From Eledone cirrhosa (Eukaryota), in contig OZ024743.1 of NCBI GenBank assembly GCA_964016885.1, forward strand, positions 237,460,001 to 237,524,000: a stretch of DNA of 64,000 nt, written 5' to 3'. Positions within the stretch are counted from its first letter, which is position 1; every line of letters starts with the position of its first letter. The notes beneath the pieces were generated by a model. It saw only the letters and a program-made list of their open reading frames with translations. It was not told the DNA's origin and did not search any database. A program made the position numbers and the translations under genes. Positions 8,800-63,387 of the stretch are shown piece after piece.

Positions 8800-10285
8800 A
8801 AATGCTCAAAAATGTGAGGCACAAATGTAGCTCTTTAAACCAGCCAAAGACTTGTACCCTCTGCCACATACATGGCAACTGTAGGCTCCTCTGGGACTTT
8901 CCATTGTTTGGTTCTCACTGTTTGTTGTCGTGTGTCTTTTAAGACCTCCCATGCTAGCACATTCCTTGCCACGTTCCTTACACCTTTTCAGATCATAATC
9001 TACATGAGGTCTACTGTTATTACTTTGTTAATGTCTAATTAATCCCGCTTTGCTCAGGCAGACTCGGCCACAGTGCTGGCAAACCAGATGATGTTCAACA
9101 GTTGGCAGTTCAGAACAGTCTCCTTATCTTACCTTCCTTTTCAGTGTAAGGTGTTCTCTTCGACGAGTTTCAAAGTGTTCACTACCTGACTTGATCAAAT
9201 GTCTCCATTTCACTCGCTCCTCAGCCATTTTCTCCCATTTGTCAGATGAAATTCCAGCACAAGCCAAGGTGCCCCTGACACAATCCCAGTACTGCATTTT
9301 TGGTTTGTGTGGTGGTCACCTTCCTTTGCAAATTTCTCCGTAGAGAAGTTGTTTTGGAATGCGCACATTCAGACACATTCATCACACATTCGGACCACGT
9401 GACCTCACCACCTCAACCGATGCCGAAAGACCATCCTCTCTATAGTCACACACCTGCTCCGTTTGAGAACTTCCAAATCACTGACGAACATTTTTCCTCA
9501 CACCCCAAGTATGTTACGAAGAGATTGTTGGTGAAACCTCTCCAGTTCCTTGAGGCACTTTCTGTATGTGACCCACGTTTCACAAGCATAAAGCAAAGAG
9601 GACGCGACACAAGTCAGATACACTTTTACCTTGGTTTCAATGGCGGTACCTCGTCTGGACTATAAACATTCAAGCAGCCGTCCAAAAGCATCACTGGCTT
9701 TTTTGATTTTTAAGGATATCTCATCCTCAAGTGTGCATGGATTGTTCAACGTACTACCAAGGTAAACAAACTTGTCAGCAACTTTTAGCCTCTTTCCGTA
9801 CACGTACACACTTGGTGTAGTGTATTTTTCCCCAGGTGCTGGCTGATACATCACAACAGTCTTTTCCAAGCTTATTGTGAGGCCCAAAGCGCTGCAAGCT
9901 TCAGAAAAAGAGTTCAAAATATGCTGCATGTCCCTTTTTGAGTGTGCAAAAAGATCGCAGTCATCTGCATACAAAAACTCTCGGGTTATAGATGTTAATA
10001 CCTTCGTGCTTGCACCAAAGCGCCTGATGTTGAACAACCTTCCTGAAGTGCGATACCTGATGTAAACTACATGCGAACAATTTTTCCTGAATGCCATGAC
10101 AAATACTATCATAAAATATAAGGGAAACAGAGTTGGAGCCGGAATGTGCCCCTGCTTCACTCCATCTTCAACTGATATTGGTTCAGAGATGTTACCACCA
10201 ATACTGACCCATCATGAAAAAAACGCAGAATCTTCCCAAACTTTGGAGGGCAGCCAAGCTTTTCCAAAATTTTCCACAATGCAGT
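8800..10285 (-). mobile_element. RTE-clade LINE fragment (RT to 3' end), decayed
   Basis: ORF 9660-10160: KQG..PAPTLF, IRYRTSGRLFNIRR, FLYADDC, GLTISLEKT, FVYLGS, KASDAFGRL. Boundaries approximate. Confidence 0.85.
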
Positions 10286-24932: not shown

Positions 24933-27694
24933 ATGCCCGTGGTGAAAGTCTTCGTGAGGGGAAAGCCACAGCGAGCCCTCGTGGACACGGGCTGTACGAC
25001 GACACTGGTGACCGCGAGGGCGGCACAGAGGTGGAAAGGGAAGAGCAGCGTAAGGGCAGCCGACGGTAGGAAAATTGAATGCCGAGGTCGCAGCGAGGTG
25101 AAGATGGCGGTACGGGGAAAGAAAATAAGGCTTTCTGCCATCGTAGTCGACAACGTGGTGGATGGGATCGGCGTAGTTATGGGCATGGACGCAATTGGCC
25201 GTCTAGGAGGCGTCACAGTGAACAGTGTCGGTGTGTCGTTTGGCGGCGCCGCATCGGTATGCGCTGTGAATACGTGACAGGAGAACCAGAAGGCCCACGA
25301 GGAGAAATATCCCGCTTACACTATACAGGACAAAGACTTCAAGGCCGTGTTCGATGGGCAACGATGGGTTGTTGAGTGGTACTGGAAGGGAGAACCACCA
25401 ACACTGAAGATCAAAGTGGGCTGCTATCAACACACATTGAAGGGAGACATTAGGATCGAGTTTGAGCGAGAGGTAGAGAGATGGATTGAGGAGGGCATAC
25501 TGCTTCCCTGAAAAGAGGAGGTGAAGTGTGGAGTATTGCCGTTAATGGCGGTGGCGCAACCCACGAAGAACAAGGTGAGGCCGGTACTGGACTTTCGGGA
25601 GCTGAACGAGCACGTGTCATGCCACACGGGTGGCGAGGTCACGGATGTCTGTGGGGAAACCCTGCGTGAGTGGAGACGCATGACGGGGGCCTCCGCAATC
25701 GTCGATCTAAAGTCGGCATACTTACAATTACACATAGATGAGAAGCTCTGGCAGTATCAGCTGGTCAGGTATAAGGGCCGGACATATTGCCTGACCAGGC
25801 TCGGTTTCGGGCTCAACTCTGCACCGAAGATCATGGCGGCGCTCCTCAAGACCATTCTGGGAAAGACCGACAAGATTAAGAGGGCCACTAATTCCTACAT
25901 TGACGACATCCTAGTGGACGAGTCTGTAGTTCGGCGGCGGAGGTCACGAGCCATTTACAGGGTATGGACTGGCTGCGAAGCCGTCAGAAGCGTTGGAGGG
26001 AGGAGCTGCGCTGGGACTTAGGTTACGGCGAGACAGGACGGGCGTGTTAGTATTCCAGAGGGGAAATGAAGTTCCAGAACTGGGCCCAAGTATGAGTAGG
26101 CGGGAGCTTTTCTCGGCGTGTGGAAAGTTGGTGGGGTACTACCCGATTGCTGGGTGGCTCCGGACGGCATGCAGCTATGTCAAGAGAGTGACAGAGTGGG
26201 AGAGAGGACGGTGGCCATGATGCAGGAGATCGTGGAGAGGGTGAAGGCCGACGACCCAGTGCGGGGACGCTGGTATGTTCCCAAATTGCAGAGCGGAACC
26301 GTATGGTGCGATGCCAGCAGCATAGCGCTAAGTGTCACTTTGGAGATAGGAGGTGTTGAGGTTGAGGATGAAGCCTGGCTTAGGAAGAAGGACGATTGCA
26401 ACCACATCAATGTGACCGAACTGGACGCGGTGTTGAGAGGGGTGAACCTCGCCCTAAGGTGGGGACTGCGCACGATCGAAATCCGCACCGACTCGGCTAC
26501 TGTACTCGGATGGGTGAGATCAGTGCTCACCAGTGAGAAGAGAGTGCGAACGAGAGGGGCGGCGGAGATGCTGATAAAGTGCCGCCTGGGAACTTTAGGA
26601 GGGCTGGCCACCGAGTTCGACCTGAGGCTGAGCGTAGTTTTCGTGCCCTCAGAGAAAAATAGGGCGGACGTTTTAACCAGGGGGAAGAAAGCCTGGATGG
26701 AAGCGCCGGAGGAGGTAGAAGATGAAATAGCTGCCGTGTGTCGGCTGACCGAGTCGGATCTGAAAGGATTGCATGCCATGCACAACATGGGAGTGGATAG
26801 GACTCTGTTCCTAGCCAGGAGAATCGACTCGGACGTTAGCAGACACAGTGTTCAAAGAGTGGTTAGAGGCTGCGTCCGATGTCAATCCATTGATTCTACC
26901 CCGGGTGTGCACGAAACGGGAAGCCTCCCGGTGGATCGCGATTGGCGGTGGATGTAATACACTACCGACAAGGAACATACCTCTCAATGGTCGACTGTGG
27001 ACCGGGACGGATGGCGATATGGAAGGAGATGAAGACTGGAACGGCCGAGGAAATCACGCGGACGTTGAGAGAGGTGTTCTTGGAGCGGGACCCTGTGGAC
27101 GAACTGCTGATGGACAACAGCGCAGCATTCCGCTCGGAGGTGCTGAGGGAGATGCTCGATGGATGGAAGGTGGACCGTTTCTTCAGAGCAGCGTACAGGC
27201 CGAGCGGAAATGGAATCGTAGAGCGACACCACCAGACGATCAAAGCAATGGCGGAGCGGGACCACATCTCACCAATGGAGGCAGTGTTCTGGTACAACAT
27301 GTCTCGTCGGGTGGGACAGGTTGAGGAATCGGTGCCACACAGAGCAGTATTCAAATACGAGTGGCGGCACCCGTGCACACCACCACAACGGCCAGTGGAG
27401 AGAGAGAATGCATTCGTGCAGGTGGGCGAAGAAGTCTGGGTTAAGCCCCCAGATGCACGTTGCACATCTCAATGGGGAAGGGGAACGGTGACGGCCGTAA
27501 ATTCCCAGAACAATGTGTCCGTGGACGGAGTACCACGTCATGTCCTGGATGTCCGTAGAATTACTGTGTCAACGGACTCCGAGGAAGAGGAAACCCAAAA
27601 GTGCCGCCCCAACACTGCGGAGATCGCAAAGAAGTCGCAAACCACCAACCTGGACAGCAGACTTTCATATGCAGCAGGACGAGGGGGAAATTGA
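24933..27694 (+). pseudogene. pol: pol remnant (protease, RT, RNase H, integrase) broken by frameshifts and a stop
   Basis: LVDTGC protease; RPVLDFRELN, VDLKSAYLQ, YIDD RT; WCDAS/TELDA/RTDS/NRADVLTR RNase H; H-H-CxxC and DVIHY/DNSAAF/NGIVER integrase; spread over several frames, in-frame TGA near 25509. Confidence 0.9.
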
Positions 27695-38545: not shown

Positions 38546-38649
38546 ATGCTTACAGCACCTAGGTTTCCCATGTGGTCACCCATTTAAGTACTAACTAGGC
38601 TCGATGTTGCTTAACTTCGGTGATTGGATGAGAATTGGTGTTTTCAGCG

Positions 38650-38654
<5 letters not shown>
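38546..38654 (-). pseudogene. 5S rRNA pseudogene, missing about 10 nt at the 5' end
   Basis: Minus strand ATAACGCTGAAAACACCAATTCTCATCCAATCACCGAAGTTAAGCAACATCGAGCCTAGTTAGTACTTAAATGGGTGACCACATGGGAAACCTAGGTGCTGTAAGCAT matches metazoan 5S, including box A and box C, with several substitutions. Confidence 0.9.
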
Positions 38655-38698
<44 letters not shown>

Positions 38699-38700
<2 letters not shown>

Positions 38701-40510
38701 AGATAGAGTCATCCCACAAATAAGAAAATACGTTATTTTACCACTCTGGGAAAACACCTCCCAGGTAATTAATTGGTTTAAAAATATTAGGTGTAAATCT
38801 TCTGCTTCTTTCCTACAGTTTGATATAGATAATTATTATTCTTCTATATCACCCATACTCCTGAATAAAGCATTAATATTTGCTAAAAATAGATCTAATT
38901 TAACTTCGGATGACATTAACATTATTACACATGCTAGACAAACACTTATTGAATTTCAGAATGAATACTGGACCAGAAACACTTATAGTAATCTTTTTGA
39001 TATTACTATGGGTTCAAGCGATTCTGCCCAAATTACTGATCTTGTGGGCCTCTTTCTCCTTTTCAACATAAATGCCTCTTTTCCCCACCTCAAAGGTGGT
39101 TTATATCGTGATGACTGTCTTCTTCTTTCTAACAACCTTAGCCTTTCAGAAATCGAAAAAAACAAAAAGCATATTAGAACTTTCCTTAAAGACTATTATA
39201 ATCTTAATATTACTTTTGAAAAAACAAGTAAAGTAGTAAATTTCCTAGATATAACTTTAGATTTAGCTACGGGTATATACCAACCTTACCATAAACCTAA
39301 CCAAAACTTACATTACATACACTCACAATCTAATCACCCTAAATCTATCCTTAAAAACCTTGCATATAATATATCACTTAGAATTTCTAACCTTTCTTCT
39401 AACCAAGATGTATTTGATAAAAATGCGACCTTTTATAATGAAGCTCTAGATAGAAGTGGCCACAAAAATAGATTAGAGTATATAACTTCTACTAAAAATA
39501 CTGAAAACATACAGCATAATATTACCAACAAACACCAAATGAAAAGTACACACCTAAATGCCACCCACAGTATACCCCAAAATACTAAATCTTCTAATAT
39601 AAAGTATAGTAACCCTCAAAAAACTACTCATCATAAGACTATAATAAATATTAATAATAAAACTCCTAATAAAAAAGATAAAACACCTAAATCTACAAAT
39701 ATAACTAAAAATAGTTGTGGTGAGATCATTAACATTATTCCTCCTAGTAAAAATCATGATACAACATATAAAAATAATAAAAATAATAAACAACATAGAA
39801 ACCGTAATAGACGAGTTACTTGGTATAATGCTCCTTTTAATTTACAAGTTAAGGATAATATTGCTAAAAAATTTTTTTATATCCTTGAGAAAAACTTCCC
39901 GCCAAACCACAAATACCATCAAATCTTAAATAGGTCTACAGTTAAATTCTCATATTCTACAACAAATAACATAAAACAAAATATAAGTGCATATAATGCA
40001 TATAAATGTAAGAAAACTATAAGTATACCACCAGTACATCAAATTAACAATAATATCTCCTCAAATACAGAATTAACGAAAGGATGTAACTGTAGAAACA
40101 AAACAAACTGCCCATTAAAAGGGAATTGTCTTGTTAACAACATAGTCTATAAATGTAATGTTAAAACTAAAGATTCTATTTGCTCATATATAGGAGCTAC
40201 CTCTAACAATTTTAAGACAAGGTATAATACCCACAAACATAGCTTTAAAAATGCCGCACTGGCTAATACAACATCTCTAGCAGAAAAAATCAATAGTTAT
40301 AAAAATAAAAATATAAAATATGATTTGACCTGGAGTGTGCTCAAAAGAGCCACCCCTTATCAAAATAATAGAAAGGAATGTAGATTATGTTCCCAAGAAC
40401 TATTTGAAATAATGAAGTCTAGGGATATCTTATTAAATAAAAGACAGGAATTAATTATATCGTGTAATCATAAACTAAAAAAAACATTTAAATATTATAA
40501 ACCTAATTAA
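38699..40510 (+). CDS. Penelope-like element ORF, 5'-truncated: reverse transcriptase + C-terminal GIY-YIG endonuclease
   Basis: QFDIDNYYSSI, ITMGSSDSA, GLYRDDCL, NFLDITLD RT motifs; CNC-x4-CPLKGNC, IVYKC...YIGAT...FKTRYNTH GIY-YIG; CRLC...LLNKRQE...CNH. About 600 codons without a stop, starting abruptly after (AT)n. Confidence 0.93.
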
Positions 40511-52314: not shown

Positions 52315-52651
52315 TGTGTATATATATAGATTTATGTATATACATACATATATATGTGCATATATATATTGACGTATATGTGTGTATATATATACATTAT
52401 ATCTATTATAATATATATTATATGCTATATATATATAATTAAAAAAATGAGGCTTGTTTGCATAATTGCAAACAAATCGAATATTATTATTAATATTCGA
52501 AAAACTCAAATTACATTTATTATATATATATGTATGTATATATTTATGTATATGTGTATATAAATATATTATATGCATTATACATATACATATATATACA
52601 TCGATATATTTCATAAAAATTTCTTTCCAACAGCTCCAATCAATATATATA

Positions 52652-53232
52652 TCATGTGTCACATAACAACAACCAAATGTTCCAAAATAAAATGGGTAAG
52701 ACATACAATAATGTTGCAAGGGAGAAGACAGAGTGACCTTGAGATGTGACATGATGACTTGTAAAAGACTGTACGGCAGCGCTACTCTCTTGCTGGCTTC
52801 GCATTTGTGTAGCTGACCTTTTGTCATGTTCACACCGGATCCCTCCAAATTCACTTGGACAAAAACATTTAAAACTTGGTCGCCGTTGGTGGTAACGACA
52901 TATACCTCCATTCATACATGGTTTCTGTATACAGTAGTCTTTGTATTGGCACTCTGAACCAGTTAATCCAAGAGGACATATACATTCCTCACGACCTTCA
53001 CGGGCGTATGATAAACATGAGCCTCCGTGCATGCAGCGAAGTCGCTTACATTTATTGATGACAATTTCACACCTGGGTCCAGTAAACCCTTCAGGACACC
53101 TACAGCGGCTTGGGCTCATGCACGTGCCACCATTTTTGCAGGGACAAGGTAAATGTAGTTCACAGTTTTTTCCTCCATAGTCACTGCGACAGTCACAGGC
53201 ATAATCATTGATCAGATCTACACAGGTGGCCC
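52652..53232 (-). CDS. Delta: Delta-like Notch ligand terminal coding exon: EGF6 end, EGF7-9, stalk, hydrophobic C-terminus, stop
   Basis: tttcag acceptor; 581 nt open frame GATCVDLINDYACDC...CEHDKRS...VFSLATLLYVLPILFWNIWLLLCDT-TGA (52654-52652). The seven exons sum to 1470 nt in one frame. Confidence 0.9.
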
Positions 53233-54260
53233 CTGAAATTAAGAGGAGAGAACAACATATGAAAATAGCTGTGGAATTGAGATGGGTTTAGAGAACAACT
53301 GAAGGATTTCAGATAAATGTTTTATAAAATAAATAAGAAAATTATAATAAGCATGATTCTACACACAACAATGCTTTGGGATCAGTGGCTTAGGATGATC
53401 CCAGCCTTGTTGAGCAAGAGGAAGAAGAAGAGGACAACTTTACTCAGGAGGTTTAACAAGAAGATCCCTTTGTAATAATCTCTCTTGTCTCCCTTTTTTT
53501 TAAATTGGAATTATCACTTTCGATTGCCAATGCTCAAGTGCCTTTCTAGAGATCCAGGCCACCTAGCACACACTAGTCAGCCAGAGAATACCTTCTCTAT
53601 TTAAGGCTTTTAACATCTCGGGTTGGTTTTTATCTTCTCCAGAGGCCTTACTGCATTTGAGCTCTTTAACTGCTCCTGTGACCTCAGCCTCAGAAAGATT
53701 AGTTATTGCTCCCAAATGCACCTTGTGTACTTCTTCAAGTTGTTCATTAAGGAATTATCTCAAATAGTTCACACATCACGGATAATTCCATTTCTAATAA
53801 ACTACATTCTATTTCAATTAATTATTCCATTATGTATGGAGCCCTAACTTTTGAGGGAGTTGTAGGGGTTCCATATTAATATACAGTTGTTCTAGGGTAC
53901 TTTAAACCTGGTGGGGCCCAACACCTCTCTAGGTCTGAATAAAGTAGATTTCTTCCAGAGAAGGATAAAGAGTGAGGGAAAGGAAGTGAGAGATATAGAG
54001 GAAGAATCTACCCCAGTACTGACCTTACACTTAACATATGATTCTTACATTTAAATAGGGATCCTGTAAAATGAGTGGGTTTTTATAGAACCAGAGCCAG
54101 TTTTGGCCAGATTGGTAACAAAAGGGTTAAACTGAATGCTTTTAAAGGATGTTTGAGTGATATCATAAACATAACATCCAGATTATCATTAATGCCCCAA
54201 AACTAGAGGTTGTCCCTTCTCAATAAACCGTAGATTACAATAAAAAGTACAAATACATAC

Positions 54261-54474
54261 CATTTTGACATGGTAATGATAGACATTCGTTGATTTCTTT
54301 TTCACAAAGATCACCAGTAAAACCTTTAGGACATGCACACCAGCCACCCAGTTCTCCAGTAACACAAGTGCCATGATTCTCACAGACGATTTTCTCACAG
54401 GATTTCACACGGTTTTCACAGCGGTCTCCATAGAAACCTTCAGGACAATGACATCTGTAGCCTGTATGTATTTC
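54261..54474 (-). CDS. Delta: Delta-like Notch ligand exon, EGF4 end, EGF5, EGF6 start
   Basis: tctcag acceptor, gtatgt donor; 214 nt; EIHTGYRCHCPEGFYGDRC...CEKEINECLSLPCQN. Confidence 0.95.
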
Positions 54475-55526: not shown

Positions 55527-55693
55527 AACACATTTGCCATCATTTAGACAAGGGTTTATCCGCGGACATCTTTTGTACTGACAATTTGTTCCTTTAAATG
55601 CTGGAGGGCAGGAACATGTATAATTAAAGGACGGATCAAAGTGACAACTTCCGCCATTTTGACAAGGTTTATATTTGCTGCAGTATTTTTGAT
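55527..55693 (-). CDS. Delta: Delta-like Notch ligand exon, EGF3 and start of EGF4
   Basis: tttttag acceptor, gtaagt donor; 167 nt; DQKYCSKYKPCQNGGSCHFDPSFNYTCSCPPAFKGTNCQYKRCPRINPCLNDGKCV. Confidence 0.95.
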
Positions 55694-58072: not shown

Positions 58073-58203
58073 CAATATTACATAGGAAACCAGTCCAGCC
58101 AGCCTCACAGATGCACTGCCATGGCTCATAACAAATTCCATGTAAACAATTCGGATCTTTCTTGCACTTGGTACAAAATTCACCTTCCCAACCGATTTGA
58201 CAG
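58073..58203 (-). CDS. Delta: Delta-like Notch ligand exon, end of EGF1 and EGF2
   Basis: tttcag acceptor, gtgagt donor; 131 nt; SCQIGWEGEFCTKCKKDPNCLHGICYEPWQCICEAGWTGFLCNI. Confidence 0.95.
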
Positions 58204-58861: not shown

Positions 58862-58922
58862 CTGCATTCCTTTGGTTTCTTGCAAAATCCATAAGAATTG
58901 TGACATTTCTCAGGACAGATTG
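58862..58922 (-). CDS. Delta: Delta-like Notch ligand exon, EGF1 (DOS region) N-part
   Basis: ttgcag acceptor, gtaatg donor; 61 nt; AICPEKCHNSYGFCKKPKEC; phase 1 in, phase 2 out. Confidence 0.92.
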
Positions 58923-60550: not shown

Positions 60551-60805
60551 CTTGGTCACAATAGTCTCCCTTCCAGCCTTCCATACATTTTCTGGTACCA
60601 TTTTCCGTGCAGTAATAATGACCAAATTCATCGTTTCTGGCTCGACAAAAATGATCACATGCTTTACCAAAGTAGTTTTTGTTACAAACCACCCGATAAT
60701 CAAAACTCATCATCGTAATGTTGGAGCGGCGTACTTTCTTGACCCATTTACGAGATGACTGTACGATGTTGGTATCAACAACACGTTGAATCATATAACG
60801 AGGAT
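60551..60805 (-). CDS. Delta: Delta-like Notch ligand exon, DSL domain
   Basis: tgtag acceptor, gtgagt donor; 255 nt; DPRYMIQR...FDYRVVCNKNYFGKACDHFCRARNDEFGHYYCTENGTRKCMEGWKGDYCDQ is a canonical DSL domain. Confidence 0.97.
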
Positions 60806-63326: not shown

Positions 63327-63387
63327 CTCGCGATGTACGATTCTTCTGTTTGTCATGCCAGGCTTCAACAGTCAATGTGAATGATTG
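63327..63387 (-). CDS. Delta: Delta-like Notch ligand, first coding exon in window (C-terminal part of MNNL/C2 domain)
   Basis: ttttcttcttcag acceptor, gtaagt donor; 61 nt encoding QSFTLTVEAWHDKQKNRTSR+G, matching the F-S/T-L-x-x-E-A-W-H motif of DSL ligands; ends in phase 1, in frame with the next exon. Upstream exons lie beyond 64000. Confidence 0.85.

Follow-up and report, generated by a model that had tools for sequence, protein, structure and literature searches.

An octopod ortholog of mollusc Delta2 with a conserved early stop and a candidate GPI-attachment signal

The Notch ligands of flies and vertebrates cross the membrane once and carry a tail that powers the pull by which Notch is opened. 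Vertebrate DLL3 is a Delta that is cis-inhibitory only; it keeps a transmembrane (TM) segment and a lysine-free tail, and its DSL domain is degenerate. The existence of GPI-anchored and TM forms of a ligand has an analogy in ephrin-A and ephrin-B.

In molluscs, He et al. (2021, Sci Rep 11:11378; PMC8166818) described Delta2, a mollusc-specific paralog that stops 1 to 10 residues past the arginine following the TM segment of Delta1. The early end was ascribed to separate, lineage-specific frameshift or nonsense changes with loss of the TM segment, expression was described as complementary to that of Delta1 and generally lower, and the gene was reported lost in three gastropods (PMC8166818). Delta2 is reported missing from Aplysia, Biomphalaria, Elysia, and the chiton. 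The GPI-tethered Notch ligands that we found in the literature are engineered probes only. In the work of Langridge et al. (bioRxiv 2021.02.11.429991), a receptor carrying the fly NRR was not activated by an FSH-Delta chimera tethered by GPI. NRRs lacking the plug responded to ligands that were tail-less or GPI-tethered, and lag-2 null worms were partly rescued by LAG-2-GPI. The DSL ligands of the worm itself are predicted to be non-GPI and were not detected in a GPI proteome that does contain the Jagged-like EGF protein C02B10.3 (PMC3302757). In flies, lysine-less Delta shows increased cis-inhibition (PMC10655352). Here we analyze a tail-less Delta gene of the octopod Eledone cirrhosa. Notch is reported to maintain retinal progenitors in these animals (review PMC10970066).

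Gene structure

Our analyses placed the last seven of nine coding exons in a 64,000-nt stretch of the genome (hereafter the window), all on the minus strand. The spliced gene encodes 604 aa, with GT-AG at each junction, and its product reads, in order, signal peptide, MNNL, DSL, nine EGF units, a 58-aa stalk plus tail, and stop. With the signal-peptide exon set apart, the remaining eight exons give a 586-residue frame with a single stop and 54 EGF cysteines, that is, nine units, of which the first two are the DOS pair (counted among the nine, not additional to them). The original prediction, of an intact ectodomain frame with intact splice sites, is thus borne out, as is its MNNL-DSL-DOS-9xEGF architecture, except that the window does not include most of MNNL or the signal-peptide exon. 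The main MNNL exon (exon 2, 291 nt) is ∼32 kb beyond the window end, and the signal-peptide exon (exon 1) is ∼105 kb past it, ∼72 kb upstream of the main MNNL exon. This first exon has 18 codons and a strong phase-0 donor (score 44 against 31 for the next best); its product is similar to the N-terminus of the Octopus bimaculoides protein and is predicted to be a signal peptide, as GPI-anchored proteins carry.

Within the window, exon 3 (63327 to 63387) encodes the middle of MNNL (C2), and exon 4 (60551 to 60805) the end of MNNL and the DSL domain with its intact Notch-binding face (Pfam DSL E 1.2e-18, PDB alignment and motif listing). The DOS pair is divided between exon 5 (58862 to 58922), which holds the first part of EGF1, and exon 6 (58073 to 58203), which holds the end of EGF1 and EGF2 (Pfam EGF_DL_JAG E 5.6e-10). 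Exon 7 (55527 to 55693) encodes EGF3 and the start of EGF4, and exon 8 (54261 to 54474) EGF4 to EGF6. The last exon (53232 to 52652), single-copy in the 3.0-Gb genome, completes EGF6 to EGF9 (52829 to 53232) and continues, from HDKR at 52828, into a Ser/Thr/Gln-rich stalk (52745 to 52828). A predicted ω region follows (52730 to 52744; rule-based, as opposed to a trained predictor), with the serine of S-Q-G at 52744 to 52742 and the glycine of G-H-S at 52738 to 52736; these small residues, which the prediction had pointed to, are followed by 29 and 27 residues, respectively. The predicted GPI-signal tail (52655 to 52729) comprises a 23-residue hydrophobic run (52729 to 52661) and D-T, and ends at a TGA (52654 to 52652) established from the frame, from DNA contigs, and from octopod orthologs. 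The spliced frame therefore does contain the 23-residue stretch, the two further residues, and the stop that had been described, and the tail has no basic stop-transfer cluster, no lysine, and no intracellular domain. Under the definition of canonical Delta given by Gazave et al. 2017 (PMC5356439), the gene has the signal peptide, MNNL, DSL, and at least nine EGF units; where the definition calls for a TM segment and an intracellular domain, it has two residues after an apolar run. A putative polyadenylation signal lies ∼130 nt 3′ of the stop (52516 to 52521, minus strand).

The window also holds apparent mobile-element sequence. On the plus strand, a 628-codon open frame (38624 to 40510) has no Pfam match at E 0.01; by eye it resembles a reverse transcriptase of the Penelope type that ends in a GIY-YIG domain. 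A similar frame occurs in the upstream intron of the Delta2 gene. Retroelement remnants lie at 25512 to 27691 (plus strand; weak matches, each in its own frame, to reverse transcriptase, RNase H, and integrase) and at 9663 to 10211 (minus strand; a further reverse transcriptase fragment).

Relationship to mollusc Delta2 and to canonical Delta

Sequence comparison identifies the gene as the octopod ortholog of the mollusc-specific Delta2. In a tree of 31 rows, built from MNNL to EGF3 with the tails excluded and rooted at the midpoint, the gene adjoins Argonauta, whose protein is 83% identical to it over 585 aa. A branch (99/97*) separates ten short-tail mollusc rows, this gene among them, from Delta1 and Jagged, and the branch leading to Delta2 is a long one. 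Eight of the 37 chosen proteins stand outside this tree (P0122, P0183, P0036, P0048, P0058, P0214, P0068, and P0223). The gene thus shows both marks of Delta2, placement in the clade and termination near the end of the TM segment of Delta1. It is an ortholog of XP_014771450.1 (P0002) and XP_021356594.1 (P0026), which stand second in the Delta column of Table S2 of PMC8166818, a place labeled Delta2 in other rows of that column. A homolog search with the last EGF unit and the tail as query returned none of 29 candidates, though orthologs were in the database.

The identification of a Delta-type ligand therefore holds as to family and missing tail, with the qualification that the gene is a paralog, canonical Delta lying elsewhere, on contig C6. 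What the original prediction missed is that the gene is the mollusc Delta2 already described with early termination (PMC8166818). The gene agrees with the published Delta2 in its MNNL-DSL-EGF ectodomain and in a stop shortly past the position of the TM segment of Delta1. The difference lies in how the end is read: He et al. saw TM loss through separate mutations, whereas we read it as a putative conserved GPI-attachment signal. The words "GPI" and "anchor" do not occur in the main text of PMC8166818, and no GPI reading of Delta2 was found in the full-text literature searched, which covers mainly journals other than subscription titles, nor in the accessible portions of PMC8166818, Gazave et al. 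2017 (PMC5356439), and the 2024 review PMC10970066. The tail-less paralog and its early stop are thus already published, and the GPI-signal reading appears new. To the Delta2 set we add Littorina, Mercenaria, Tegillarca, three more scallops, and Argonauta.

Several public Delta2 models look mis-spliced, in that either the EGF array is cut short or EGF4 contains an intron-like insert: P0001 (Octopus vulgaris CAI9731602.1), P0002 and P0004 (O. bimaculoides), and P0145 (Pinctada).

Eleven DSL matches were found in the genome. The canonical Delta on contig C6 has a strong TM segment, a basic cluster, and a lysine-bearing tail, and it groups with bivalve Delta1 in the tree. At this locus (93.80 to 93.92 Mb; L002, L003, L019, L020, L031, and L032) there are two near-identical tandem copies, which differ mainly in the stalk and may have arisen by recent duplication or may be two haplotypes that the assembly left uncollapsed. 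Seven more DSL matches, which are divergent, lie on contigs C2 (L023, L024, L026, L006, and L007 at 90.87 to 90.97 Mb; L028 and L029 at 355 Mb) and C4 (L025 and L027 at 260 Mb); those on C2 adjoin long EGF exons.

The stop codon and the C-terminal tail

In each of three DNA-type runs, which may derive from the assembly's own sample, one contig spans 52609 to 53595, and the interval 52609 to 53398 has no differences listed. In a further run, X4, a contig crosses the spliced junction of exon 8 with the last exon, and a second reads unbroken from 53030 to 52752, through the stalk, ending before the ω codon and ∼100 nt short of the TGA; X4 is treated as RNA solely because of the contig joining two exons, no run being recorded as RNA. 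Comparison with orthologs, which the original prediction had proposed, places the stop at the same position in O. bimaculoides (P0002 and P0004) and Argonauta hians (P0003). The stop is therefore very unlikely to be an assembly error, the outcome that would have undone the prediction, since the TGA is present both in DNA contigs and in octopod orthologs. The single TM-like downstream frame, near 39841, was rejected because it runs antisense to a long ORF that is unrelated. Inspection also spoke against a CaaX or PDZ end: the cysteine is the antepenultimate residue, and the final residue varies (T or I).

We compared the tails of a Delta2 set of 12 proteins, made up of the ten tree rows together with Pecten and Argopecten, which share a 90% cluster with Ylistrum. 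Ten of the 12 have a stalk, a small-residue triad, a spacer, and a weakly hydrophobic apolar end, that is, a hydrophobic C-terminus without a cytoplasmic domain, as in GPI-anchored proteins. The other two (O. vulgaris P0001 and Pinctada P0145) end inside the EGF array, without a tail, and are probably faulty gene models. Glypicans and alkaline phosphatases are GPI-anchored in other animals, and three such ends from this genome (two alkaline phosphatases and one glypican; the last exons of 5′-nucleotidase and a second glypican were not found) served as GPI controls. As TM controls we used 75 of 80 candidate Delta and Jagged proteins (P0011, P0044, P0053, P0185, and P0228 were dropped). The best 19-residue hydropathy was 1.11 to 2.08 for the ten Delta2 tails and 1.51 to 1.72 for the GPI-type ends, compared with a mean of 2.96 (1.98 to 3.72) for the TM-bearing ligands, only two of which were at or below 2.1. 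A rank test of eight Delta2 tails against the 75 controls gave p 5e-6, to be read with the relatedness of the sequences in mind, as they are not independent. At least two K/R residues follow the TM segment directly in 71 of the 75 controls, and the small triads of the alkaline phosphatase and glypican ends lie 22 to 30 residues from the C-terminus. The genome has three alkaline phosphatase genes with GPI-like ends (L076, L077, and L078, contig C22), two of them an inverted, near-identical pair.

The published rule for GPI signals, of a small ω residue, a small ω+2 residue, and 20 to 30 residues removed (Kinoshita 2020, PMC7125958), describes nine of the ten full Delta2 tails, including that of this gene; in its loose form it also describes 13 to 40 of the 75 TM ligands when these are cut just past the TM segment. 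A tighter pattern, [NS]-x-[GSAC] with 26 to 29 residues after it, which was chosen after inspection of the tails, occurs in eight of the ten. S-x-G-x-S is kept in all three octopods with a full tail, O. bimaculoides and Argonauta having the same S-R-G-x-S followed by the apolar run. The tails of Littorina and Mercenaria are long, with their best sites 37 to 38 and 30 to 39 residues from the end. The PredGPI scheme (PMC2571997) places a polar spacer of ∼7 to 10 residues between ω+2 and the hydrophobic tail; this spacer is clear in the scallops and Tegillarca and short in the octopods, where apolar residues begin at ω+5. Thus, as the original prediction suggested, the end is a candidate GPI-type signal, which the tail appears to fit better than a TM segment, and a GPI anchor on Delta2 is predicted with good, though not full, confidence. 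Because all lineages stop at the same place, we infer that a single ancestral GPI signal would explain the common position more simply than separate frameshifts.

Other explanations of the short end were weighed against this one. A second view, by which misassembly, pseudogenization, or a minor isoform (the main one being spliced to a downstream TM-plus-tail exon) accounts for the end, would be in keeping with the RNA contigs stopping short of the TGA and with weak donor-like sites at 52737 (5/7 consensus matches) and 52706 (4/7). However, the TGA in the DNA contigs and the same end in models made independently for two further octopod genera speak against it, X4 reads unspliced through the donor-like sites at 52854, 52835, and 52817, and nine Delta stalk-TM-tail queries found no tail exon remnant in the window (best E 0.096), although three of eight foreign queries of this kind detected the canonical locus on C6 at E ≤ 0.004; we regard this explanation as very improbable. 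Taken alone, the Eledone tail could pass as a TM segment: its hydropathy, 2.07, is among the highest of the set, the best window is uncharged, and all 23 residues of the run are apolar. An uncleaved helix with a two-residue cytosolic end, which would make Delta2 a dominant negative or a cis-inhibitor somewhat like DLL3, also agrees with a stop roughly where the TM segment of Delta1 ends (PMC8166818). A single-sequence fold of the last exon, poor overall (pLDDT 46), contains a confident helix at residues 171 to 191, which does not discriminate because GPI-signal tails are helical as well. The absence of a stop-transfer cluster, a small triad whose distance from the C-terminus is nearly constant, the Lys or Arg inside the apolar run of orthologs (O. 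bimaculoides and Mercenaria), and the hydropathy of only 1.11 in Ylistrum all count against a TM helix, and we consider it improbable. Less probable still is a Delta2 that is secreted, retained inside the cell, or moved to an adhesive or matrix role. The TM loss proposed by He et al., the expression complementary to and generally lower than that of Delta1, and the three gastropods reported without Delta2 (PMC8166818) would suit such a change, as would the long branch in the tree. A secreted protein would have no need of the hydrophobic C-terminal run found in ten of the 12 proteins, however, and the DSL face of the octopods is intact.

Notch binding and the octopod receptor

The DSL domain of the gene has F, R, R, D, and F at the positions of JAG1 F199, R201, R203, D205, and F207, residues of the Notch-binding face that are needed both in cis and in trans (PMC3415683). 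Given this intact face, Notch binding by Delta2 is likely, a judgment drawn from the alignment; in several bivalve and gastropod Delta2 members the F199 or F207 position is substituted. The account that we favor, tentatively and at a little short of an even chance, is that the gene is an octopod Delta2 that is GPI-anchored, binds Notch without the epsin pull, and serves mainly as a Notch brake. What was observed is how the gene is built, its conserved stop, its place in the clade, the anatomy of its tail, and its DSL face; to this the account adds a proposed mechanism. GPI transamidase would cleave at the S-x-G or G-x-S site, and a lipid anchor would replace the C-terminus. Delta2 would then bind Notch EGF11-12, like other DSL ligands, and, having no cytoplasmic side, would be neither ubiquitylated nor engaged by epsin. 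It would inhibit Notch in cis and, in trans, compete with Delta1 and Jagged; GPI-cleaving enzymes might release it. The failure of the GPI-tethered FSH-Delta chimera to activate a fly-NRR receptor (bioRxiv 2021.02.11.429991) and the stronger cis-inhibition by lysine-less fly Delta (PMC10655352) speak for such a brake.

The receptor raises another option. One NOD match, and hence one Notch, was detected in the genome, with its LNR exon at L046:1435-2004 (contig C18). Compared with that of human NOTCH1, its LNR-A/B linker is short by one residue, the gap falling at the leucine after C-S. A second hydrophobic residue remains in the linker, and the C-terminal part of the HD looks divergent, with bulkier residues; both may compensate for the absent leucine. 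We take the plug of Langridge et al. to be NOTCH1 L1482, an equation drawn from PMC3145759 together with our own assumption. In NOTCH1, L1482 and F1484 of the linker fill a void over the S2 strand (PMC3145759; PMC4537882). The missing leucine puts endocytosis-independent activation beside a decoy or brake: Delta2 might be a GPI-anchored true trans-activator that works without the epsin pull, on an octopod NRR tuned, as in LIN-12 and GLP-1 of C. elegans, to low force. The leucine is lacking in the single Notch detected and kept in a metagenome-contig Notch (L049, the only useful locus of two found), and the response of plug-less NRRs to GPI-tethered or tail-less ligands, along with the partial rescue by LAG-2-GPI (bioRxiv 2021.02.11.429991), gives the idea a precedent. 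Yet the absent plug was seen in one species, its equation with L1482 has the basis given above, the second linker residue and the divergent HD may compensate, and a canonical Delta1 with its tail is retained. We therefore think trans-activation unlikely, though well worth considering. A broader version, in which a GPI-anchored full-length Delta has been kept since the ancestor shared by shelled molluscs and cephalopods and activates the plug-less octopod Notch, seems unlikely too and somewhat more doubtful. If true, a single animal would have two Notch routes, the canonical one through Delta1 and one free of ligand endocytosis, the latter arrived at independently of nematodes.

A natural GPI-anchored Delta across cephalopods, bivalves, and a gastropod, if confirmed, would be a new form of Notch ligand and would reinterpret the published TM loss. 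Delta2 and the plug-less octopod Notch would also form a ligand-receptor pair for testing endocytosis-free Notch activation outside nematodes. Compared with canonical Delta or Delta1 (fly Delta, vertebrate DLL1 and DLL4, and the C6 gene), Delta2 shares the signal peptide, MNNL, DSL, DOS, nine EGF units, and conserved Notch-binding face; unlike them, it lacks a strong TM segment, a stop-transfer cluster, a lysine-bearing tail, and an ATEV/PDZ end. With vertebrate DLL3 it has in common that it is a Delta paralog not expected to trans-activate by the ubiquitin route, although Delta2 combines a missing tail with a canonical DSL domain, and DLL3 a TM segment and lysine-free tail with a degenerate one. 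Its C-terminus resembles those of glypican and alkaline phosphatase, which likewise follow a signal peptide at the other end of the protein with a small ω triad, a spacer, and a moderately hydrophobic end; GPI attachment is established for these families in other animals and is predicted for Delta2. Finally, the secreted DSL ligands of Caenorhabditis elegans and the LAG-2-GPI and FSH-Delta-GPI constructs have no cytoplasmic domain, as in Delta2, and an octopod Notch without the linker leucine adds to the likeness to the worm system; the two constructs are artificial, whereas Delta2 is natural and has a full nine-EGF ectodomain.
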